Positions 16,781 through 33,158 of a stretch of DNA of 64,000 nt are shown here, piece after piece. The number at the start of each line of letters is the position of its first letter. Position 1 is the first letter of the stretch. The notes beneath the pieces were generated by a model, which saw nothing but the letters and a program-made list of their open reading frames with translations, had not been told where the DNA came from and ran no database searches. The DNA is from Xylographa opegraphella (Eukaryota), in contig JALDZX010000009.1 in assembly GCA_022813865.1 (NCBI GenBank), positions 248,001-312,000 of the forward strand, given 5' to 3'. The position numbers and the translations under genes were made by a program.

Positions 16781-17527
16781 ATGCAGTACTCCAAGATCGC
16801 TTTCCTCGCCGCCTTGGCTGCTCCCCTCGTAGCTGCCCAGGACCTGTCCGGCCTGCCGTCGTGCGCTGTACGTTGCTGCATTTGATCCACCCATTCGTTA
16901 TGCGACTTCTGACTTTGATCCCTCCAGTTGACGCCTGCCATCAGTGCTCTCAGCTCCACCGGCTGCGCTCTGACCGACGTGGCGTGCATTTGCGCCGACA
17001 CTTCCTTCCTGCATTCCCTGCAGACCACCGTGGAGGCAGTCTGCAGTCCGGCTGACCTGACGAGTAAGATTGCTCCTCGCTCAATCGTGGCCGTGCGGCA
17101 GATTCATTGACACCTTCGTGCAGAGGCCCTCCAGTTCGCGCAAACTCTCTGCCTCAGCGCCGGTGTTACGTTGACCGTCGCGACGCCCTCTGCGCTCGCA
17201 CCAGCCACGACCCCGGCTGCAGCGTCGACCACTCCCATGATGACCACCACCGCCATGGCATCGACCACCATGACCACCACCATGCCCATGTACTCCTCCT
17301 TGACCAGCGCCATGATGTCCAGCAGCGCCATGATGTCCAGCGCCACCCCATCATCCGCCGTCATCGTGTCCGTCATCTCCGATGGCCAGCCTCAGGTTCC
17401 CACCAACGCCACCACCCTCGCCTCCGCCACCATCACCCCCTTCCAGGGCGCCGCCGCCACCAACAAGGCTCAATTCGCCGGCGCCGCCATGCTGATGGGT
17501 GCCGTGGGTGCCGTGTTCGCTTTGTAA
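16781..17527 (+). CDS. Secreted CFEM-domain, Ser/Thr/Met-rich, probably GPI-anchored cell-wall protein with one PIR repeat (3 exons)
   Basis: Exons 16781-16867, 16928-17063, 17124-17527 give a signal peptide MQYSKIAFLAALAAPLVAA, CFEM LPSCA..GCALTDVACIC..VCSPAD..LC, PIR-type VISDGQPQ and a hydrophobic GPI-type tail. Confidence 0.9.
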
Positions 17528-17873: not shown

Positions 17874-18388
17874 TCAATGCGGCAACCGCATCGCCCGCTC
17901 GCCCCACACGTGCCCGCACCCGCCCTCCGCCATGACGCACACGTACATCTGCGTCTTCTGGCCGCCGCCCGTCGTCGTCGACAGGAAGACGTGGCCCGCC
18001 CGATGGCAGCCCGGGCACGTCACGCTCGGCTGCCGCACTTTGTTGTTCGTCACTCGCTTGCGGAGCGGCGAGTGGAGAGTGTCTCTGGAGGCAATGGGTT
18101 TGTTAGCTGGGAGGGATCTTGGGGAGACGGATATCGGAGGCGGGCTTACGGCTCGTGCAGATGTTGCGCGTTTGGTACGAGGGCTGCGGTATCGCGTGCG
18201 TAGAGCTTGTTGGGGAAGCTATCGTCGAAGATGGCGGCTTCGCGCGCGTATAGATGCTGCTGCTGGTGGTTCTCGGCTATGGGGTGGGCTTCTCGGGCGT
18301 GGAGGTGGGGCTGTCCGGAGGTGCTGCCGGGGTGGCAGAGGGCGAAGGGGGCGGTTAGGGCGAGGAGGAGGGTGCGGGGGAGGTGCAT
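17874..18388 (-). CDS. Small secreted prepro-protein (149 aa): LxAR pro-repeats, LRKR site, C-terminal C4 zinc-ribbon-like domain
   Basis: Exons 18388-18150 and 18084-17874; intron GTAAGC...GCTAAC...CAG. Signal peptide MHLPRTLLLALTAPFALC. TATA-like TATATAAAA about 100 bp upstream. Confidence 0.8.
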
Positions 18389-18504
18389 GGTGCTGGACTG
18401 TGGAGGATTAGTGGATGGTTGGGAAGGGGAGATGTCTGCTGCTGTTGTTGTTGTTGTTGTGTGGAGGATATTGGGGGGNGGTGATGGGGCTTTTATATAG
18501 TGAG

Positions 18505-18775: not shown

Positions 18776-19976
18776 GAGGAATATGTGACCGGGCCCGAGT
18801 CGTTGGGTTTCCACCCAGCGGACGAGCATGTGGGGAATGACCCGGCCGTGAGGAAGGGCTGCTTGACGGGGGCGGAACGATGGAGTCTCCGCTGATGGCA
18901 TGGTGCTGTGGTCGGGGTTTTGGAAGAGCTGGTCGTTGGGGACGGGGGCTTGAGGGGCTGACCAACTGGTGTTTGATTGATGATCGTGGTATAGCCTTGA
19001 GTGGCGGTGCTTTGGGTGAGAAAGAGTTGTTTGCCTTATGTGAGGGGACTCATAAAGGGCATGCCGAACATGGGGTGATGCTTTAGAGTTCTTCACGGGC
19101 GTGAGAGCCCCTGGACCTTGCCTAAATCCTGGGGGCAGCTTTTTGAGTGCCGCTATTTCGTGGTCTTCCCCGGGAACGCTTCAGTGGGAAGCCCCCTGAA
19201 CTCCTGACTCCTTGCCAAGAGCTTCTTGGGAATGCTTGTTTATCTTTGGGTTCCTTTGGCAGAATCTAGTCCCAACACGGACAAGATGACAGATTCGGAG
19301 CGGAACAATCTCGGCGCTAACAGTTCTTGACTCTTGAGACTCCTCCACCAGAGCAACTACGCTGCACTCAGAAAATATCTCAAAGTACCCATCCGTACCC
19401 AGGCGGCCGAGTAGTGTAGAGCCCAGCCAATCATCTTACCATAAAACAGCCACGGCTCACCTGCGAGTCTGGATGTGGAAGAGGGGAACGTGTTCCGTGA
19501 TGATGTCGAGAGAAGGTGGGCTGATCAAGGGCGATCTTTCTGCTCTTTGGTCCTTCGGGTGCTGCGGATGTGCTTCTTTGAGAACGGCACCACCGTCACT
19601 GACAGGATGATTGAATCTGCGACCATCAGTTCGATCTCGTTATTAGCGCTCGCGTCGCTCACGACCACTGCCTTCGTCTAGCCGCTTTACAAGTGTACAG
19701 TACACACATGTAACACGCTCCCGAAAATGAACTCATTGGGTAAATCCACAAGAAGGGTTCTGCTGTGCTTAGATTTAGAAAGAACGCCATTGACCGGAGG
19801 GCTCTGATGCCGGCGACGCTACCTTCCGTAGCAGGATTGATTCCATGGTGACGAGGATGAAGCATTTACTTCCAGCATGTGCTTTCACTCATGCTTGATT
19901 CCCTTGCTTGATGATGTTTGTTTTGATATCCTGCTTTTCGTTGACTGTTTCCATGACCTCTTGAGCGGTCGTTACC

Positions 19977-22077
19977 ATGACTCGAATCACGCCTCGAACT
20001 TGTCTCTACCCTCTCACTGGTAGTCTCCTTCTCACCTTCACTCTCTCCATCGCACTCACCTTCCGTTCTGACCACTACTGTTATGCTGGCACCTGTGGCG
20101 AATGGCTCTTCCCCCTCCAGGCACGACTACACGTTGTGGTATGGTACTTCTGGGTCTCCATCTCTGTCGCTTTCCTCGCCGTGCGCGCTTTTCACCCGCA
20201 GCTGCGGCGCTTCCTTGTACGGCCTGTGCTGGATCGCAAACTTCTACTACTGGGCAAACGTCTGACGATTAGCGGGCTATTGGCTTTCATATCGGTTGTC
20301 TCACTCTACGGTATTGTTGTCGGTATCTGGTGGATCAGGTTGAGAGACTACTTTGAGGCACGCGGTAGCGCCGCTGGTGTTTATGAGGGGAACAAGCGTC
20401 TCGCAGCCATTGCCCTGACCGGTCATTTTTGCGACATCACTATGGGAATGGTCTTGATTCCGATTTCTAGACATAGCGCACTGGCCTCATTTTTCAAGCT
20501 TTCCGTGTCCACGACGCTTGCTTTTCACATGTTGATTGCATATACACTCTTCACTCTGGTCCTTTTGCATGCATTTCTTTACGTGTCGTGGATCCCTGTA
20601 TTCGAAAGTCTTTCGCAAAATCTTCGGATGGTTTACCCGATCCTGAACCCTACATATCTATACAACGAGACCTGGCCTGGCAATACTTCTCCATTAGGGG
20701 TCTGGCGCGCTTCTCTGATATTTACCGGTCTCACGGCTACCACAATAATTTGCCTAATATTCCTCACCACGCTACCTAGAATTCGAGGAAAGCATTTTAA
20801 CTTATTCTACTTCACTCATCTTCTAAGTATCGTGGCCGTTATCGTTATATGCCTCCACGCAAGCACGATGTTCTACTGCACAGCTCCTGGACTCGTCATG
20901 TGGGTCCTCGATTGGGGCATGCGACTGTATGAATTGAGGAAGAAATTGGATGGCAAAGTCATACACTTGGGAAATGGGTGGTACAGGTACAAACCATTTA
21001 CGATTATCCGGTCCAATGCAAACTGGCTAACAAATACCAAGCTTGATCTTGGGACTTCCTCGACACCGTCTCGACGGCTGTGCGTGCAAATCCCCACTGG
21101 CTCATTTCTACATACATCATGCCGAGTCGTCAGTACGAGAGCTCCATCCATTCACGACCATCACCCATCTCGCGTCCCAGAACAGGCTTACCCCTCCAAC
21201 GGAAAACGATCTGCCGGTACAGTTTCTCTTCCGTAAACGCGGTATAGCGACCGCTTCTGGAACCACGCCTAAGAAATATGCATGGATATCAGTGCTCAAT
21301 TTCTTCAGTATGAGACTGAAGCCATCTTTTCAATGGACGGACAAGCTCGCCGGCCTGGCTGACCGCTCTTCATCCATACCAGAAGATGTCGAGAAGATCG
21401 CATTAGACCGTTCAAGCTTGACACCCCGATCTGGTCAATTGCAAACCAGCAATATCGACCAAGCCCAGCCCGTGGCAATGGTAGACATCGGCCTCCGCCT
21501 TGAAGGCCCATATTTTACCCCAGCCGATCCTTCGCGTTATAAGACAGTCATCTGTTTCGTCGCCGGTACCGGTGTCAGTGGGGCGATCGCCATAGCCGCC
21601 GCATTCATCGATCTCAAGAGGCAGCAAGTGGCCGTCCAGAAAGAATATACTTCGTCGAATACCAAAGAAGCGTTATCCGTGCCCGCTTCATGCTCGTCAT
21701 CGAAGTCGTCCGCCTCGAGTACATGGCAACGCTGTGTTGTTTTCTGGAGCGTGCGGGCCGACGATTATGTCGAGCTACCCTTTTTCAACGGTAATTTCCT
21801 CGCTTCAACCAAGAGTTTCTTTCATGCGTTCCTTGACCAGGCTAATAGCTTCGACTTCTCAGACCCTTCCGCCTCACTCGAACTCCGCATCCACCTCACC
21901 GGCAAAGACCGGCCGCGACTTGACGTCGCCGAGGCCCTTGCGTCCATATGCAACGAGATGCCGGGAGGCTCAACTTGGTGTTACCTTTCCGGCCCCAACG
22001 CCTTCATCGCTGCAGGCGAGGCGGCGTGTAAATCCCGCCCAGGAGTGGACTTTTATGGGGCCAGGTGGGATATATAA
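19977..22077 (+). CDS. Ferric reductase-like transmembrane oxidoreductase (FRE/NOX superfamily)
   Basis: Heme His pairs (FHMLIAYTLFTLVLLHA; THLLSIVAVIVICLHA), FAD motif HPFT, NAD(P)H motifs EGPY and VAGTG; introns about 20987-21041 and 21791-21861. Confidence 0.9.
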
Positions 22078-24723: not shown

Positions 24724-25505
24724 TCCCGCGGTGTCGGTAAAGGGTAGCTGCTTTGTGGTTCGATACCCTGAGCGGAGGCGAGGTGCGTCGCATATACACC
24801 CGTGTATGGGTAATGAGGAAGCGGCATGCATGGCGGGAAGCCGAGCGTCTGCGCTATTTCACCTTATGATCCCCGGGTCGGTGACGATGAGGATGAAGAT
24901 GAAGATGAAGCTTGCTGCCTTTTCTCGTCTGGGTCTGTTTATTGCATGCAGTGAGCCCCGTCCGAGTAAACGCTTCTTTCCTGGTCGATAAAGTGCACCC
25001 GCCGTTACCGAGTTCCCTACCAAGCCAAAGGTTCCTTAAGATTACCGAAGCTGGCTCTCGCTAGACTACTTCGAGGCTAAGATTGGTTGGGCTTCATAAC
25101 GACCTGTTTGCTCTCGGCGTATCTCGTTACCAGCAGTAACCAGACCTCCCAGACAGGCCACCCACTCGATAGTCTGCGTCCTGATCACCATATCTACCTT
25201 ACACGACAACAAGAGGCCAATCACCATCCCCAAACCCCAACCCAAAAAAATCAGGCTTTGCACAAAGAGCATGGATTTCCATATATACTGTCATCCTAAG
25301 GTAACCCACTGTCTCACTCCGCGCACCCCCCCCCGCGCCAACTTATCAAAAGCATAACCAGCAAACGCCCGCCCTAATGAGTTCCCCCGATGCCCACCCG
25401 ATCCTCCCACCCTGATGCGCCCCAGTCCCGCGCACTGAAATGCGATGTCCTTCTGTGCCCCACCCGAACCTTTTCCATGTCCCGGATCCAATTTACGGCT
25501 CCGCT

Positions 25506-27217
25506 TCACGCTTTCGCTTCCGCCTCAGCCAGCGCCTCGGCATAGGCGTCGGCATAGGCTTCGGCATAGGCGTCCGCGGAGCGCTGCATGTGGTGGTGGT
25601 GCCCGGCGCCGTGTTTGGCATCACGTCTGTGGGACAATAATATTAGCGAATGTCCGGTCAAGGTTGGTCGAAGAGCTAGGTGTCGTACTTCTGGGGAGCG
25701 TCTGGAGCGGCAGCGCCGGGTGCACCTCCACCTGGGGGTCCGCCGCCCATGCCGCCTGGTGGGCCTCCTCCCATGCCACCAGGGGGGCCTCTGCCCATGC
25801 CGCCTGGAGGGCCTCCCATCATACCGCCTGGAGGGCCGCCAATCATACCGCCTCTACCGCGGCCGCCCCAGCCACCTCTGCCACGGTCACCGCCGCCTCT
25901 TCCACGGTTTGCATCTCGTCTGTAGTGAAACACTGTCAGTGAAAGTCTGCGGGAAATGGTCGAAGAGCGATCGTACTTCTGAGGAGCGTCTTGTGCGCCT
26001 CCGCCTGGTGCACCTCCACCTGGCGGTCCTCCGCCCATGCCACCAGGGGGCCCTCCACCCATGCCACCTGGTGGGCCTTCTCCCATGCCACCTGGAGGAC
26101 CTCTCATCATACCGCCTCTACCCTGGCCGCCCCAGCCACCTCTTCCGCGGCTACCGCCGCCTCTTCCACGGTTTGCATCACGTCTTGATCAGCATCAGTG
26201 TGAGCGTTCGACAGAAGAGAATGCAACAGCGTACCTGACATGGTTGTGGTGTGCGCCGCCGTGTGCTGCTCCGCCGTGGAAGGCTTCTGCGTAAGCGTCT
26301 CGTCTGAAGAAGAGAGACGTTAGCATATATATGTACGATGGGATTTCAGGTGAGCTTACTTTGACGGTGGGGGTCCTCCGCCCATGGCTCCCATCATTCT
26401 CCCACGACCACGATCGCCGCCTCCGCCTCCTCGTCCACCGCCTCGTCCACCGCCAAATGGGTAGCCTGCTTCGGCGTCGGGGTATGCATCGCGTCTGGAC
26501 AAAAGTCAATGGACATCAGTCGGTAGCGCTGACAGTGACAGTGTCTCACTCTTGGTGGTGGTGGTGGTGGGGGTGATGGCCACCAGATCCGTGTCCATCT
26601 CCGCCGTGGCTGTGGAATGGTTCCGCATCACGTCTAACCACATGTCAGCCAATGTTCGGTAGTTTTGTTGTGAGAATATTTTCTTTACTTGTGGTCGTGA
26701 TGATGAAATCTACCTTTACCACCGTAGCGTGCTTCAGCGTCGGCCACTGCTTCCGCCTCCGCTTCGGCCTCTGCTTTTGCTTCTGCTTCTGCCTCTGCTT
26801 CTGCCTCTGCCTCTGCTTCTGCCTCTGCCTCTGCTTCTGCCTCTGCCTCTGCTTCCGGCTCCGCTTCCGGATAAGCTTCTCGCCTTCCAAACAAGTCAGC
26901 ATGCAAGTCTTCATGGTAAAAGACCAGTAAAACTACTTGTGATGTGCTTTTCCTCTCTTAGCGTCGGCGTCGGCGTCGGCTAAAGCTTCTCGTCTTCAAA
27001 GGTGTCGTCAGCAAGAAAACCCTCAACAGTGTCATAGGTGGACCTACGCATGGTGCTTGTGAGCATAGGCCTCTGGGTATGCGTATGCTTCAGCCTCAGC
27101 TAATGCATCCGCATACGCTTCTGGGTAGGCTGAAGGATCGGCCCAGGCCAGTGGGTTTGCGATCGCAACAGCTGTGAGAGAGAGAAAGGAAAGGACGACG
27201 GCACGTGAGAAATACAT
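25506..27217 (-). CDS. Secreted Kex2/Ste13-type polypeptide precursor (KEP-like), about 422 aa, 9 exons, His-rich and Gly/Arg/Met-rich peptide units
   Basis: Exons 27217-27048, 26993-26937, 26883-26689, 26633-26550, 26494-26360, 26303-26235, 26183-25977, 25919-25689, 25626-25506. All introns are GT..AG, 51-62 nt, with CTRAY branch sites. Signal peptide MYFSRAVVLSFLSLTAVAIA; KR/RR/AR/ER followed by EA/DA/YP/EP dipeptide runs. Confidence 0.88.
25627..26183 (-). repeat. Tandem duplication of an exon+intron cassette, with internal GPPGGM minisatellite
   Basis: Exons 7 and 8 both encode RDANRGRGGGxRGRGGWGG...(GPPGGM)n...DAPQK; the introns following both begin GTACGA and contain GCTCTTCGACCA. Confidence 0.9.
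26750..26870. repeat. Coding 6-bp microsatellite (GARGCA)n encoding a long (EA)n spacer
   Basis: Plus-strand runs of TGCCTC/TGCTTC. Confidence 0.9.
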
Positions 27218-29817
27218 GGTAAGAAAGAGATTGATGACGTGAATGAATTTAGAGGAGTAGTAGTGGAGAGAAGAAGCAGACGGTCTGTATCTCCAGTATG
27301 CTTCCAAGTGTGCTTTTAATGCTGAATAGGACCAAGGGGGAAGCCCTAGGATTTATACTGGTGTAGGAGATATGCTCTCCGTGGATACATCTTGATACAA
27401 CAAAAATTTCACAAACAGTTTGTTTCAATTCATTGATACTGCACTCTCCACGCCATTCCGTTCAATGCCCCAACAGGCGTGTCATTAGTGAAGGTCGATC
27501 AGGCGTGATTCATGGGTTTGTGGTTGGTGACCCAGGTTTCGGTCGAGAACAGAGCGGGCATGCAGAAAAGACAACATATGACATCCGTACATTGGGCTAG
27601 AGCAGACAGGAATGGACGCCGTGGCTGGCAGGGTCCGTGACGCCTTGAGCCATACGCGTTACTCGTTGCCGCGAAGTCCCAACGAGTAACAGACCTCAGA
27701 AGCGGGAGTATCAGTGGCGAGGCACAGTATGGTGCGGTTGACAGCCTCCACATTCAGTTGACGATGTGGTAGCCAGAACCAAGCATACCTCATTGATGTG
27801 GTCTAGTGCCCGGTTGGGTAGTCTAGTCGTAGGCCCACGCGTAGTCTTTCGAAACAAACAAGTAATATTTGGGAGAGATGTATCGTGTGTTAGGTCCACA
27901 ATCTTGAACGTTGAAAGACATAATGAGGACAAGCTCGAGCTTTTACTATGATGACTCGTGGGCTTGAGCGTTAGCGGGAAGGCAGCTAGACAGTCCCCTA
28001 AAGTGCTGCCTAATAGTTGAACTTGATACCATGCAGATCCCCCCCGGACGTCCATCGCGGCTGGGTTTCCAGGGGGATGGTCAGCCCCTAAACCGTTGCG
28101 TGATCCCGCCCGCCCGCTTTTAATGCACGAGGGTGGGGACGCGCGCATGTTGTGGATTCTTGCGTAATTCCAACATCTCCTCCACCTCAGCAGGGCCAGA
28201 CGGAGGCTGGGACTGCGACCCAAGACAGGGTGTACCAGATATTGCTGCATGACAATCACGTCTCCAGCCTCACACGGCCGAGGCCTGTACTCACTCGTGC
28301 CACAGCATCAGACCAAGATAACAGATCGGACAGCAAGTACGCCGCAACATGTCCCCCAAAATCTTCGTCCGATGTCCCACAGGCACAGTCTATACGACCT
28401 GAAGAATTATGTACTGGATTCAATGAGCCTGTTGATCCTTACAATGCGAAAAAGCACATGGTGGTAGTGCAGGCATGTGTAACTTGAGGCTGCGTAAAAC
28501 GAAGATCCTGCCATGATTTATTTCATATGAGGGTCTACCTGGTACCGCTCACGCACGACATCGGTCCTGTAGCAAGATTTGGGTGAGCAGTGGTCTAGAT
28601 CACCGCACCTGTGCGGCGTAACGGGGTCGCCTCATGCCTGTCTATCCACGTATCTACAGTGCACAGCATTCGCAAGATGCATGCCGTATTCAGCATAGCG
28701 TTCACTCATGATTTTATTCTGTTGCTACATTTTTCTGGATCTTATAACCACTGTATCTCCTTGTCAGTCTTGATATCCCAGTCCAAGCTGTTTCGCCATG
28801 TGCTCATGTTATGACCCCGTTGCCTTATTGCTCCACTTCATCCTCTGGAGCTGTTCTCAAACAGAAAGTGTCTTCCCAGACGGGCTCCACCATTGTGATA
28901 AGAAGAGCAACTATGTCCAGGTACTCGAGACACGTCCAAAGCACGCAATTTAATGCTACTCTGTATACAATACCCCGGTAAGTTTGTCTCGTTCGCCTGA
29001 AAGTCTCCAAGCAAATCCCGCTGTATCTATCGTCTTTGTCCTTGCTTTATATCCTACTCCGCAAGTATTGGATATACTGCCGCGTCAAGTCAGCATGATA
29101 ATATACTCAACTCTCCCTCTCGTGCGTGAAGAGCTTTCCGTCTGAACGATCAAAACCATTAATCGATGCCATCTTATACCTGACACAACACTCGGTGCAA
29201 TATGTCACGATCAGAGTCTCCATGGCCCAAACCTCTTCTCTGTCAGTCCTACAAATCAATCCGCCCCACTCCCCTATACCGTCCCTCTAAGAGCTGTGCT
29301 CAATACCCGAGATCCAAGCACTGAACTCCCTCTGCTCTCAAACGACCAGAGCAAGGCCCCAATCCGCGTCCTGGTAGATAGCCAGGCTTTTCGGCTCGAG
29401 GCTGCTCTCTACAGTAGACGCCGTGGTGCTGGCGACGATGACACAGTATCCTAGCTTCTAAGCGGTGAGAAAGGCGAGAAAGAGGAGGTGGCAGATGGTA
29501 GCAAGATCCGGCACTCAAGCAACGTTTGGCAGTTCAAAGATTCACAGGTCCAAGCACCCATATCTCAGCAGCACCGGCGCCTTAGTGATTTGCCATGATG
29601 TACAATTAGAAGCTATGTATTGCCCGACGGCGCCGTCGCCTGTATCGCGTCTATCTATCGAAACAAGAGTCGTAACATCGTGCTATCCAGATCTATCCCC
29701 GCTTCGAAAACCACAAAAAACGCCGTTATGTATGCTTGCCCCACCCGCCATGCTTATGCTTTTCAACCCTTAGACCCGTCTCTCGTACAGCCACCACGGT
29801 GCCAACGTCAGCAGCAC

Positions 29818-32289
29818 TCAGGCCCTTCCGAAGCCAAGGCCCATCCTGCCTCTCCACCCACTATCCGCCCTCTTTCTCGTCCCTTCTTCTTTCTTTTCTA
29901 CGATGACCTCCAGCTCCCCCACCCAGTCCCCGCTCTCGACCCTCTTGGCTTCGCTCTCCCTCCGCGCCTCGCTCTCCCTCCTGCTCCCCTTCCTCTCCCG
30001 CTCCAGCCCTCTTTGCCCCGCATACCACGCTTTCCGCTCCGCCCGCTTCTTCTCCACCCACGCTTGCGCCACGCCTCCCCTTTTGCAGGCCACACCCATC
30101 AGCTCGCCGACGCCCAGCATCTTCCTCGGCAAGCCCTGCACGACCTGGAATATCTCCATCGGATCGCTGACGGCCTTGATCTCCGCCTCGCCTAGTTTGA
30201 AGACTGCCAGCGCGACGCGGAACAGGGTGCGGCTGCCCTCGTAGAAAAGAACGTCCCATACTCGCAGGACGCTCTCGATGGGAAGGGTGCCGATGTAGAG
30301 GCTCATGAACCAAGAGGTTGTACAGAGGGATATGGGAGGCAGGCGAGTCGTAGACGTGGTAACTTCACCGCCAACCTTAGCCCAGATGGAGGGGAGAGCT
30401 TCCTTGAGGGCGAGCATGAGGACCCAGAGATCAACGTTCGCGCCCTCGAGGCTGAGCTCGTGGGTACCAGGCAAGTGGGTAGTAGTGAGGATGTGGAGGA
30501 GCCAAAAGGCTTTTTCTTCCGGAAGGAAGAGTAGGAGGAGGCCGGCAAGGAAGTTGAGTGACTGGCAGTAGCCGATCCGGGGATGGTGGATGGCAAATGC
30601 GGAGAGGACGCGGCGAAGGGATGAGAGAAGAGGTGTTTCGGTCGTGGGGGATTGAGGCATAAGAGGCTTGAAGTGTATGTTGTCAGGAAATGTACGGTGC
30701 AGGTCACGTTCGATGGCTTCGCGGTCGGCAGGATTGAGCTTTGGTGTCTGGGACTGGAGGACCAGCTCGGCGTAGAGATCGGGGCGGCGAAGTAGATATG
30801 ATTCGCCACCAGCGTAGTGGAACCAGGCCGCCCCTCTCCAGGCGGGTGGAAGACCCTTCCGTATAAAGCGCTGGACTTTGGCGGAGCGTTCCGGGAATCG
30901 AGTTGGGTCATGTATGGGAAGTCCCTGGTCTTGCATGAATGTTACCCATTTAGCACTGCGGCGTTCTTGGACATGGGCATACTCCGTATACCAGGCATCG
31001 TACTGAGAGGTGCTTATGTCTCGAGAAAACTTTTGAAATCCGTATTGATCATGAGTAGTATCGGGTACTCTTATTGATGGCGGCCGGGGGAAAATGCTTT
31101 TGAACACTTCTCCAGAAAAAATATCCGTCGAGTCTCGCATCTCTGGTGCTTTCAGCTTGGGGGGTTGTGACAAGAGTGTGTCGATCGTGTCATTCATCGC
31201 CTCTGCGATCTTCAGCGATCTCCTTTGTATCTCACTATCATTTGGAGACTTCATGATGTCTCCCTCGGCCAAACCAAAATCGTCCTCGAAACCCGCCGAG
31301 TAGAGATCAATTGCATCGTCGACTGTCATGCTTCCATGCTTGGGCAATTGATGTTCGTCAAGATCTATGCTGATATCACTCACCGAACTCAGTTTCGTGA
31401 ATATACTGCTGTGCTCAGTGCTTCCAGTGTCCGGCAGACTGGATGCACTGCTCAGCCCGGAGTGAATGCTGTCTTGTATGTCCTCTCGAACATACGAAGA
31501 TTTCCATCTCACCCAGTGCTCAGGGGTTGGTGATCTTCGCTTAGCCAAAGCCTCTTCATTCGCTTTTCTGGCACTGCCGACAAGCATCGGAGTGTGCTGT
31601 GATTCGTCCCCAATACTATCTGAAAATTGAGGTTGTATTGCGGTATGGGGTCTTGGAGGTAGCGCCCGGGTTGTAAGCAGCTGCTTTGGCTGTCGTTGTT
31701 TGGGAAGTCCATCGATCTGATTGGGGGCCTTGAAGGCTAAATGTTCTCTCTTGCGGTGAGGTCGCTCGTTGGATGTAGTCTCATCAGCTGAAGACTGTAA
31801 CGGCCATGAGCTTCCTTGTGAAATCCCAGCTGTTTGTGCTCGTAACTCAAAATCTTCGTGCTCGTCATATGGCTTAGGATCCATATCATAGCCTCCCGAG
31901 TCCAGAAGACTCCCACCAGACCTATCCAGGCCAATCCCGGTTATGTCACGAGGAGAATATTCCGTTGCTACTCTAGCATTCCCATCTGTCACCCGTAGCA
32001 CTTGACGGCTACTGACTCTACCCGATTTTGTAATATCTGAATCGAGGCTATATGCTGATCCATTGCCAGGTTTTCCAGACGGAGTCCGAGCGAGAGGCAG
32101 TGGGTGGACATGGTTGGCAGTATGAGGAGATTGAGGACTCGACCTGAAGCTCTTTTTCCTTCCAAAAATCAACAGTCGTGGCAGGCTCTTCTTTTTCTTG
32201 AGAGACTTCCCAGCAACTATAGTGCCGTCTGTTATCGTTCTCGAGCCTTCGGTGCCCATGTGCGTAGCGTCCATTCTGTGTACCGTCAA
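29818..32289 (-). CDS. TBC-domain Rab GTPase-activating protein (Msb3/Gyp3-like)
   Basis: IRKGLPPAWRGAAWF, IERDLHRTFP (Arg finger), GYCQSLNF (Gln finger), LRVWDVLFYEG; long disordered N-terminus. The 5' end is uncertain. Confidence 0.92.
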   Translation of the reverse strand: MTVHRMDATHMGTEGSRTITDGTIVAGKSLKKKKSLPRLLIFGRKKSFRSSPQSPHTANHVHPLPLARTPSGKPGNGSAYSLDSDITKSGRVSSRQVLRVTDGNARVATEYSPRDITGIGLDRSGGSLLDSGGYDMDPKPYDEHEDFELRAQTAGISQGSSWPLQSSADETTSNERPHRKREHLAFKAPNQIDGLPKQRQPKQLLTTRALPPRPHTAIQPQFSDSIGDESQHTPMLVGSARKANEEALAKRRSPTPEHWVRWKSSYVREDIQDSIHSGLSSASSLPDTGSTEHSSIFTKLSSVSDISIDLDEHQLPKHGSMTVDDAIDLYSAGFEDDFGLAEGDIMKSPNDSEIQRRSLKIAEAMNDTIDTLLSQPPKLKAPEMRDSTDIFSGEVFKSIFPRPPSIRVPDTTHDQYGFQKFSRDISTSQYDAWYTEYAHVQERRSAKWVTFMQDQGLPIHDPTRFPERSAKVQRFIRKGLPPAWRGAAWFHYAGGESYLLRRPDLYAELVLQSQTPKLNPADREAIERDLHRTFPDNIHFKPLMPQSPTTETPLLSSLRRVLSAFAIHHPRIGYCQSLNFLAGLLLLFLPEEKAFWLLHILTTTHLPGTHELSLEGANVDLWVLMLALKEALPSIWAKVGGEVTTSTTRLPPISLCTTSWFMSLYIGTLPIESVLRVWDVLFYEGSRTLFRVALAVFKLGEAEIKAVSDPMEIFQVVQGLPRKMLGVGELMGVACKRGGVAQAWVEKKRAERKAWYAGQRGLERERKGSRRESEARRESEAKRVESGDWVGELEVIVEKKEEGTRKRADSGWRGRMGLGFGRA

Positions 32290-33158
32290 CGAAGATCCAG
32301 TCTTCCAATTGGCATGAACCGCGAGGAGAAGGCCAGTTCTCTCGAGTGAAGTTGTGCAGAACTTCCCGCAGAGATGGTGGAGTTAGTTGGTCGACCAGTC
32401 CCCAGCATTATGTTCAGTCAGGTCCAAATATTTTCTAACGACAGTTGTGGTGAGTGTTGGTTGGAGCTACCGGGTTGGAGCACTAATGAACCATTGTTGC
32501 TATAAGAGTTGATCTGCACAAAGAGCTATTGATTGTTGTGCGCTGAATCAATAGCACAAATGAATGTGAATAGAAAGAAACCTGTACAATAGTAAAACAA
32601 TGAGGGGCAAAGGCCAGAGAGTGATGTTGAAGCTCAATCGTCGGAGGAAGATCCGGGTTTCACCTCCCGCCCAATTTCCGGTGGCGTCCAGGGGAGATTA
32701 AAAGCGGCCGAATTGCAAGGAAGTGCAAGCGAAGACCTGGATTTTATCAGTAGTCTACTCCGTAGTGATGTCCGTTGACAGCTATTATTTCCAAGCTGGG
32801 AGAGAGACCAGATCCACCATCCGTCAGGGTTTCCCTGCTCATCAGTGCAGGCCGCCCAGTGACTATTTATCGTGAATAATAAGTTCTGGCGGGTTCCGGC
32901 ACTTGGACTTCAATGTTCCGCAGCACGTCACGGTGCGCCGATGACCATGGTGGGGATAACTCATGGTAAGGTCACGAAGACGTCGCTGTGGGTTGTTCTT
33001 CGAGCTCTTTACAGATACGCAGATGACTCGAGCGCAGTGGTTTTGGAAACGCTTCACCAAACGATAGCCGATTACAAGCCAAACTCCCATCGTCATTCGT
33101 CCATCTCCGAGATCTCATCTCTATATTTGCCTACAAGAACCACGATAGCCCACCTCCA

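Follow-up and report, generated by a model that had tools for sequence, protein, structure and literature searches.

A predicted spliced gene for a putative secreted multi-peptide precursor was identified in a stretch of 64,000 nucleotides (nt) from Xylographa opegraphella (GenBank assembly GCA_022813865.1, contig JALDZX010000009.1, positions 248,001 to 312,000; in the following called the window). The gene is located on the minus strand at positions 27217-25506 of the window, where nine exons join to an open frame of 422 amino acids (aa). It probably codes for a secreted polyprotein which would be processed to approximately nine peptides of a defence type with metal-dependent activity, and the gene itself appears to have been built by tandem duplication.

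All eight introns of the gene are of phase 2, and each of them interrupts the codon preceding an arginine. The motif R-[D/E]-A is found eight times in the whole protein, and all eight occurrences are the first full codons of exons 2-9. The units which begin in this way share one layout, in which the arginine is followed by an in-register spacer of X-Ala or X-Pro dipeptides, a peptide core and mostly a Lys-Arg.

Gene structure

The start codon at 27217 is the earliest ATG in its open frame, and the stop codon TGA is located at 25508-25506 (minus strand). A scan of the 783 nt upstream of the start codon revealed a single TATAAA box as well as a CCAAT motif at -378. The introns have a length of 51-62 nt (54, 53, 55, 55, 56, 51, 57, and 62 nt) and all show GT..AG borders. 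The codons split by introns 1-8 encode A, K, K, E, K, R, K, and K in this order, with an Arg following each time. For seven of the eight introns, the acceptor 51-62 nt downstream which restores the frame is unique; for intron 6, a second candidate acceptor was found at 119 nt, inside exon 7. An earlier reading of this DNA, made from the letters alone (the sequence-only reading), had proposed nine exons for a product of about 422 aa, eight phase-2 introns splitting the codon before an Arg (AR, KR, KR, ER, KR, RR, KR, KR) and seven internal exons with lengths divisible by three (57, 195, 84, 135, 69, 207, and 231 nt). That reading gave no strand; on the minus strand, the exon lengths were reproduced exactly, and the intron positions, the divisibility of the exons and the product length were confirmed. 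The features are as follows:

27352..27357, minus strand: TATAAA box, 140 nt upstream of the ATG
27140..27217, minus strand: start codon and predicted signal peptide, 26 codons
27048..27217, minus strand: exon 1, 170 nt; predicted signal peptide followed by 13 X-Ala/X-Pro dipeptides and a core of 5 aa (3 His); closes with bases 1 and 2 of the Ala codon that intron 1 splits
26994..27047, minus strand: intron 1, 54 nt, phase 2; GTAGGT..AG, branch-like GCTGACG 14 nt from the 3′ end
26937..26993, minus strand: exon 2, 57 nt; Arg, 5 dipeptides, internal Lys-Arg, short core with 2 His
26884..26936, minus strand: intron 2, 53 nt, phase 2; GTAGTT..AG, GCTGACT 12 nt from the 3′ end
26689..26883, minus strand: exon 3, 195 nt; Arg and 25 dipeptides, most of them Glu-Ala, followed by a core of 13 aa (4 His)
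26634..26688, minus strand: intron 3, 55 nt, phase 2; GTAAAG..AG, GCTGACA 11 nt from the 3′ end
26550..26633, minus strand: exon 4, 84 nt; Arg and 2 dipeptides, followed by a core of 23 aa (10 His, 6 Gly); last residue Glu, ahead of the Arg of the next exon
26495..26549, minus strand: intron 4, 55 nt, phase 2; GTGAGA..AG, ACTGATG 21 nt from the 3′ end
26360..26494, minus strand: exon 5, 135 nt; Arg and 4 dipeptides, followed by a core of 35 aa (18 Gly, 5 Arg, 3 Met)
26304..26359, minus strand: intron 5, 56 nt, phase 2; GTAAGC..AG, GCTAACG 16 nt from the 3′ end
26235..26303, minus strand: exon 6, 69 nt; Arg and 3 dipeptides, followed by a core of 15 aa (5 His); ends at Arg/Arg
26184..26234, minus strand: intron 6, 51 nt, phase 2; GTACGC..AG, ACTGATG 11 nt from the 3′ end
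25977..26183, minus strand: exon 7, 207 nt; Arg and 1 dipeptide, followed by a core of 65 aa (33 Gly, 6 Arg, 5 Met, 10 Pro) with 24-nt units of the GGMGGGPP type
25920..25976, minus strand: intron 7, 57 nt, phase 2; GTACGA..AG, ACTGACA 16 nt from the 3′ end
25689..25919, minus strand: exon 8, 231 nt; paralogue of exon 7, longer by one 24-nt unit; core of 73 aa
25627..25688, minus strand: intron 8, 62 nt, phase 2; GTACGA..AG, GCTAATA 16 nt from the 3′ end
25506..25626, minus strand: exon 9, 121 nt including the stop codon; Arg and 1 dipeptide, followed by a core of 11 aa (5 His), another Arg, 12 X-Ala dipeptides as a tail, and TGA

Evidence for the introns and the coding frame

A CTRAY branch motif is located 11-21 nt from the 3′ end in each of the eight introns. 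When the introns were shuffled (2000 trials), the motif was found on average in 1.04 and at most in 5 of the eight. Furthermore, the GC content of the exons (0.54-0.72) is above that of the introns (0.36-0.51). The chance of eight phase-2 introns would be (1/3)^8, or approximately 1.5e-4, if they were independent; they are not, since units 7 and 8, at the least, arose by duplication.

The coding frame was assessed by comparing the repeated parts of the gene. Exons 7 and 8 differ over 68 aligned codons by 19.5 synonymous and 9.5 non-synonymous changes, giving a synonymous rate (dS) of 0.46, a non-synonymous rate (dN) of 0.067 and a dN/dS of 0.15. The differences are distributed as 3/6/20 over the first, second and third codon positions, and the departures of the nine 24-nt units of the GGMGGGPP type from their consensus as 3/4/25. 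The frame of exons 7 and 8 is under constraint at the protein level. In addition, the Glu-Ala spacer of exon 3 is written in a mixture of codons, with GAA used 11 times, GAG 10 times and four different codons for Ala. On these features the gene is taken as real, and it seems to be translated in the frame described here.

Open frames of 167 and 222 aa are also present on the opposite (plus) strand at 25439-26238, over the main gene. They exist because the gene is of low complexity, and an annotation based on open reading frames (ORFs) or a naive gene caller could choose them over the spliced gene on the minus strand.

The TGA that ends the main gene sits in a donor-like context, GC/GTGAAG (25504-25509, minus strand), resembling the donors at which the eight phase-2 introns begin. 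A tenth exon behind the stop codon was considered and rejected: the five candidate GT..AG introns (45-119 nt) all lack a branch motif, and none of the candidate extensions opens with R-[D/E]-A. The donor-like context may be the relic donor of a lost unit.

Anatomy of the precursor and its predicted processing

Residues 1-26 resemble a signal peptide, with an Arg at position 5 and a hydrophobic core of 15 residues (mean Kyte-Doolittle hydropathy 2.41). Two A-x-A motifs have their last residue at position 20 and 26, respectively, and the register of the dipeptides is kept from either predicted cut. The spacers of units 1-9 consist of 13, 5, 25, 2, 4, 3, 1, 1, and 1 dipeptides, the single one in each of exons 7-9 being D-A. 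The last Arg, which belongs to the internal Q-R of exon 9, leads into a tail of 12 dipeptides without a core. An X-Ala directly follows all eight junction arginines as well as the internal Q-R of exon 9, which corresponds to the STE13 signature. Six of the eight junctions are K-R or R-R, and one further K-R lies inside exon 2; the remaining two junctions are monobasic (A-R and E-R). A search for dipeptide runs in the sense frames of the window gave 17 matches, of which 10 lie on the DNA of this gene. The seven others are all minimal (4 dipeptides), so that longer runs in the window are confined to this gene.

The cores fall into two classes. Six of them are rich in histidine (5, 7, 13, 23, 15, and 11 aa) and hold all 29 histidines of the protein, in clusters of 2-5. 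The other three, encoded by exons 5, 7, and 8, are cationic and rich in Gly, Arg, Met, and Pro (35, 65, and 73 aa), with a Met every 8 residues in the Gly-rich units. The whole protein consists of 24.4% Gly, 19.2% Ala, and 8.5% Pro, and neither a Cys nor an N-glycosylation sequon was found in its 422 aa.

The signal peptide would direct the precursor to the secretory pathway, in which a Kex2-type convertase of the Golgi would cut after the Arg opening each of exons 2-9. A Kex1-type carboxypeptidase would then trim the trailing Lys or Arg, and a Ste13-type dipeptidyl aminopeptidase would strip the acidic spacer of one X-Ala or X-Pro dipeptide after the other. About nine short peptides would result, six from the His-rich class (5-23 aa) and three from the cationic Gly/Arg/Met/Pro-rich class (35-73 aa), and after the trimming of the dipeptides four of the six His-rich cores would begin with a His at position 2 or 3. 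The peptides might form a cocktail of the host-defence type, with an activity involving metal ions, which would be released into the lichen thallus or its surroundings.

The Kex2/Kex1/Ste13 logic had already been put forward in the sequence-only reading, and it is supported by the signal-like segment, the K-R or R-R at six of the eight junctions and the X-Ala behind every junction Arg. Acidic spacers in front of cationic cores, as well as the Gly-rich and His-rich classes themselves, are classical for antimicrobial peptides. The processing scheme has been described for the alpha-factor and for those fungal Kex2-processed repeat proteins (KEPs) which carry the STE13 signature (PMC6339444; PMC9769878), and Pichia pastoris is reported to have removed XA/XP motifs from a Coprinopsis KEP (PMC9769878). 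Shepherin I is described as a Gly/His-rich antimicrobial peptide with Zn(II)-dependent activity (PMC10698721). At the level of the sequence, the proposed processing appears to be well founded. The assignment of one exon to each peptide holds overall, but it is approximate, because exon 2 contains an additional K-R and exon 9 an additional Q-R and the tail.

Points against the proposed reading

Several observations weigh against a secreted precursor of defence peptides. The homology searches were performed with exon 1, exon 5 and a 170-aa frame consisting of exon 7, intron 7, and exon 8 as queries (exons 2, 3, 4, 6, and 9 were not used singly). Among 928 candidates obtained for exon 1 against longer proteins, none reached E ≤ 0.01, and its best score in the ESM Atlas was 0.80, which is below the lead threshold. 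For exon 5, 8000 candidates were scored and none reached E ≤ 0.1. The 170-aa frame gave four matches among 1.84 billion representatives (E 1e-5 to 1e-3), which were rejected as compositional, being PPGGMGG-like low complexity in unrelated proteins. As no homologue was found with these queries, conservation cannot back the gene model. Low complexity extends throughout the protein and weakens every compositional argument, and the signal peptide was judged by inspection and Kyte-Doolittle hydropathy alone.

The processing itself raises further points. A-R and E-R are poor Kex2 sites, so some of the units may stay fused. The longest stepwise removal of dipeptides is said to be that of promelittin, with 11, a length which the 25 dipeptides of the exon 3 spacer exceed. 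Units 5, 7, and 8 contain many Gly-Arg-Gly sites at which other proteases could cut. Finally, a small set of metal-responsive promoter motifs was not found in the 783 nt upstream of the gene.

Searches for families were likewise negative: none of seven pieces of the gene scored above the cutoff of any Pfam family (E up to 1), MF_alpha included. A resemblance to acidic repeats of the procyclin type stayed below the threshold (20.6 bits vs. a cutoff of 100). Insect peptides were not found among the library matches of exon 1, exon 5, and the exon 7-8 frame. There is weak evidence that the gene is restricted to its lineage. Its absence from the protein libraries says little on whether it has been annotated, because no match of the neighbouring RabGAP frame was marked as coming from the window itself.

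Alternative explanations

The main rival to a role in defence is a role purely in the handling of metals, in which secreted peptides from the same processed precursor would serve a thallus exposed to metals by buffering or scavenging Cu, Zn, or Ni and would not be antimicrobial. Such a role is possible, and we consider it clearly less probable than the defence reading. The confinement of all 29 histidines to six short cores, in clusters of 2-5, would suit it, as would the regular Met residues of the Gly-rich units and the His at position 2 or 3 of four of the six trimmed cores, the arrangement found in N-terminal sites with high affinity for Cu(II)/Ni(II). However, this N-terminal pattern depends on the predicted trimming. 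An ORF of the ferric-reductase type is present in the window at 19965-21236, but it is not adjacent to the gene, as a CRAL/TRIO gene intervenes, and none of the Cu, Zn, and Fe regulator motifs was found upstream, which is a weak test. Furthermore, the handling of metals overlaps with a metal-dependent antimicrobial action, and the two are not exclusive.

It is unlikely that the product is a mostly unprocessed, disordered protein of the secretome or the matrix, in which the repeats would be structural (matrix, adhesive or fibril coat) and the basic sites incidental. The extreme low complexity, with its high contents of Gly, Ala, and Pro, and the faint likeness to procyclin-type repeats point in this direction, and the Kex2-released Rep1 peptides of Ustilago are reported to form fibrils (PMC9769878). 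Against this stand the restriction of R-[D/E]-A to the starts of the units in all eight cases, which a purely structural repeat would not need, and the strict two-residue register of the spacers, which is held even where the first residue of the dipeptide varies. Moreover, the protein contains neither Ser/Thr-rich stretches nor a hydrophobic C-terminus that could serve as an anchor, nor does it contain Cys.

A precursor of signalling peptides, which could be pheromone-like, hormone-like or addressed to the algal partner, is very unlikely. KEPs with the STE13 signature have been argued to be good candidates for peptide hormones (PMC6339444), but the cores of this gene are heterogeneous and of low complexity instead of being copies of one ligand, and neither MF_alpha nor another Pfam family was matched above its cutoff by the seven pieces of the gene.

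A non-functional origin, as a chance spliced frame in low-complexity repeats or as a decaying pseudogene, is highly improbable. The protein searches returned no homologue and no annotation, and antisense ORFs of 167 and 222 aa cover the same region. Against this origin stand the bias toward third codon positions in both comparisons (3/6/20 and 3/4/25), the dN/dS of 0.15 between exons 7 and 8, the branch motifs in all eight introns, and the combination of a TATA box, a start at the first ATG and a signal-like N-terminus.

[quoted passage not shown]

Duplication of units

The tandem duplication which forms part of the preferred reading, a processed precursor of defence peptides, is best seen in units 7 and 8. 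Exon 7 with intron 7 and exon 8 with intron 8 are identical in 84% of the aligned columns, with one 24-nt indel, and the likeness extends into the 5′ halves of the two introns. The units are 90% identical, and introns 7 and 8 show 71% identity (z 4.9). Among the other 27 of the 28 intron pairs, two reach z 3.1-3.4 and 25 stay at z ≤ 2.5; intron homology beyond the 7/8 pair is not demonstrable from these sequences.

Weaker links connect the remaining units. Units 7 and 8 have the Gly/Arg theme in common with unit 5, which also contains one of the 24-nt units of the GGMGGGPP type. The DNA repeat families D7-D10 link exons 4, 6, and 9, and also the first 24-29 nt of exons 2, 3, 5, and 6; in particular, D10 joins exons 4 and 6 and D9 joins exons 6 and 9. 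The tail of exon 9 agrees with the spacer of exon 1 in 72% of the aligned part, which is modest for sequences of low complexity. The growth by exon duplication claimed in the sequence-only reading is established for unit 7/8 and only suggested for exons 4/6/9 and the starts of exons 2/3/5/6.

The gene probably arose when a unit of one exon and its intron was duplicated in tandem and the copies diverged, which is the simplest account. The shared position of the eight introns, together with their common phase, is best explained by descent, because the units would descend from each other by duplication of an exon with its intron, and it does not require selection on every single site. The coreless spacer at the end agrees with a tandem array whose last unit is partial.

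Splicing as a possible variable

All internal exons are symmetric, with phase 2 on both sides, and any donor joined to any later acceptor restores the same residue ahead of the Arg. The skipping of exons would therefore give shorter precursors with intact cleavage sites. Of the variation by in-frame exon skipping which had been suggested for this gene, the compatibility of the frames is the part that is borne out.

Intron retention is a common mode of alternative splicing in fungi. At this locus it would lead to a stop codon after 1 codon for introns 1-5, after 4 codons for intron 8 and after 13 codons for intron 6; the immediate stops arise automatically, because a GTA or GTG donor in phase 2 yields them. 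Retention of introns 1-5 or 8 would truncate the precursor exactly at a unit boundary. Intron 7 (25920-25976, minus strand) has a length which is a multiple of three, is free of stop codons and stays in frame if retained. It would add 19 residues, and its last bases recreate R-R-D-A together with the next exon, which keeps a dibasic site ahead of the next unit.

These properties are permissive conditions only, and it is quite unlikely that the choice of splice sites at this locus sets which peptides are made. If it did, this would be the first fungal peptide gene with a product mixture tunable by splicing, convergent with the splice variation proposed for bee apidaecin and for frog skin peptides.

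Comparison with known multi-peptide precursors

In one KEP survey, candidates were selected by a signal peptide (SignalP), KR/RR/KK sites and at least three similar repeated fragments (FIMO-based; PMC6339444). The gene described here shares with the STE13-signature KEPs and the alpha-factor type the (here predicted) signal peptide, the K-R or R-R between units and the X-Ala/X-Pro behind the basic site. Whereas the repeats of KEPs are near-identical, its cores are heterogeneous and belong to two classes of composition; in addition, it has two monobasic sites, far longer spacers (up to 25 dipeptides) and one intron per unit. Nevertheless, the statement of the sequence-only reading that the gene is unlike KEPs goes too far. 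Of 1193 surveyed KEPs, 1114 contain one type of motif, 77 contain two and 2 contain three (PMC6339444), so that 79 are not uniform, and the candidalysin precursor is treated as a KEP as well (PMC9769878). Four KEPs are catalogued in the lichen fungus Umbilicaria pustulata (supplement of PMC7329392).

The precursor of apidaecin combines a dibasic site with an acidic dipeptide spacer. The likeness to it which had been noticed for the fungal protein holds at the protein level, but the precedent goes further: the apidaecin gene of the honeybee is described as having several exons which each encode a complete peptide, and splice variation has been proposed for it (PMC1847501; PMC3415428). Both genes thus have one exon per unit of spacer, peptide, and basic site, a likeness in architecture only. 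The apidaecin units are variants of one Pro-rich insect peptide, whereas the fungal gene encodes two unrelated classes; it is an analogue of the apidaecin gene and not a member of its family. An architecture with one exon per peptide is not unprecedented, because the apidaecin gene has been described in this way.

Tandem-duplicated peptide exons have also been described in frogs, in the magainin and caerulein genes of Xenopus and the hymenochirin gene of Hymenochirus, for which alternative splicing was proposed (PMC3899252). Like the fungal gene, they encode a whole set of peptides which is preceded by a signal peptide and an acidic spacer; they differ in being vertebrate genes in which the repeat covers two exons and the peptides are nearly identical within a gene. 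The hymenoptaecin precursor of ants contains Gly-rich peptides, an E-A-E-P spacer, and repeated R-R/K-R sites (PMC3415428). It follows the same protein logic, but all of its repeats lie in a single exon, and its only intron is of phase 0 and located in the pro-region (PMC3415428). Promelittin and shepherin I are systems with a single product or from plants and insects, and they resemble the fungal precursor in chemistry only. The long X-Ala/X-Pro pro-part of promelittin is reportedly removed stepwise.

No description of a fungal precursor with one exon per peptide was found in the literature searched. The words "intron" and "exon" do not occur in the main texts of the two KEP surveys (PMC6339444 and PMC7329392), and the relevant passages of papers naming both a Kex2-processed repeat and an intron contain no link between the two. 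A 2026 preprint on antimicrobial proteins of lichens has no mention of histidine, glycine-rich, precursor, dibasic, or Xylographa. The gene is best filed as a fungal, heterogeneous and exon-modular member of the class of Kex2/Ste13 multi-peptide precursors, which is apparently lineage-restricted; to claim an unprecedented design would be overstated.

Genomic neighbourhood

Downstream of the precursor gene, a CRAL/TRIO (Sec14-like) gene was found in convergent orientation. An ORF for a transmembrane protein of the ferric-reductase type is located at 19965-22077 on the plus strand, approximately 3.4 kb past the 3′ end of the precursor gene with the CRAL/TRIO gene in between. A RabGAP-TBC frame at 29818-32382 (minus strand) shows 84, 82, and 79% identity to its counterparts in Xylographa vitiligo, X. 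bjoerkii, and X. trunciseda, 86% to one further database protein and 69% to Lambiella insularis. By these values the window belongs to a lichen-forming lecanoromycete (an ascomycete) in the vicinity of Xylographa. DUF3328, tyrosinase, methyltransferase or other families of peptide tailoring were not found in the 73 ORFs scanned (37 of 139 with at least 110 aa plus 36 of 130 with at least 75 aa in 14-36 kb), in which split exons could hide a domain.

A second gene for a small secreted protein was found at 17874-18388 on the minus strand, 7 kb away from the precursor gene. Its two exons (18388-18150 and 18084-17874) encode 149 aa and are separated by one 65-nt intron of phase 2 with a CTAAC branch motif. 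The N-terminus of the product is signal-like, and its pro-region contains the motif [H/Y]-A-R-[E/D] three times, followed by a canonical K-R and a part of about 60 aa with four Cys including C-P-G-C; it matched no Pfam family above the cutoff. The three A-R-[E/D] in this pro-region hint that A-R followed by an acidic residue may be a used context in this fungus. This gene is adjoined by an open frame rich in Thr, Ala, and Met at 17111-17527 (plus strand), which shows a match to the PIR cell-wall repeat below the threshold (18.6 bits vs. a cutoff of 20.9). A single N is present at position 18479.

Implications

Fungal multi-peptide precursors have been catalogued from lists of proteins, an approach which by design finds repeats of one peptide and ignores the structure of the gene. 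The locus described here indicates that a mixed set of peptides can be built in a fungus by the duplication of an exon plus its intron, and it would provide a fungal counterpart to the design of one exon for one peptide in bees and frogs. Genes of this kind may escape annotation as well as repeat-based screens. Short introns of the same phase in front of R-[D/E]-A units provide a pattern by which further ones could be searched for. In addition, the gene yields candidates for secreted defence or metal-binding peptides in lichens, in which such molecules are hardly known. If the proposed reading is true and splicing varies its products, a metal-dependent cocktail of peptides could police the microbiome of the thallus of this symbiotic fungus.

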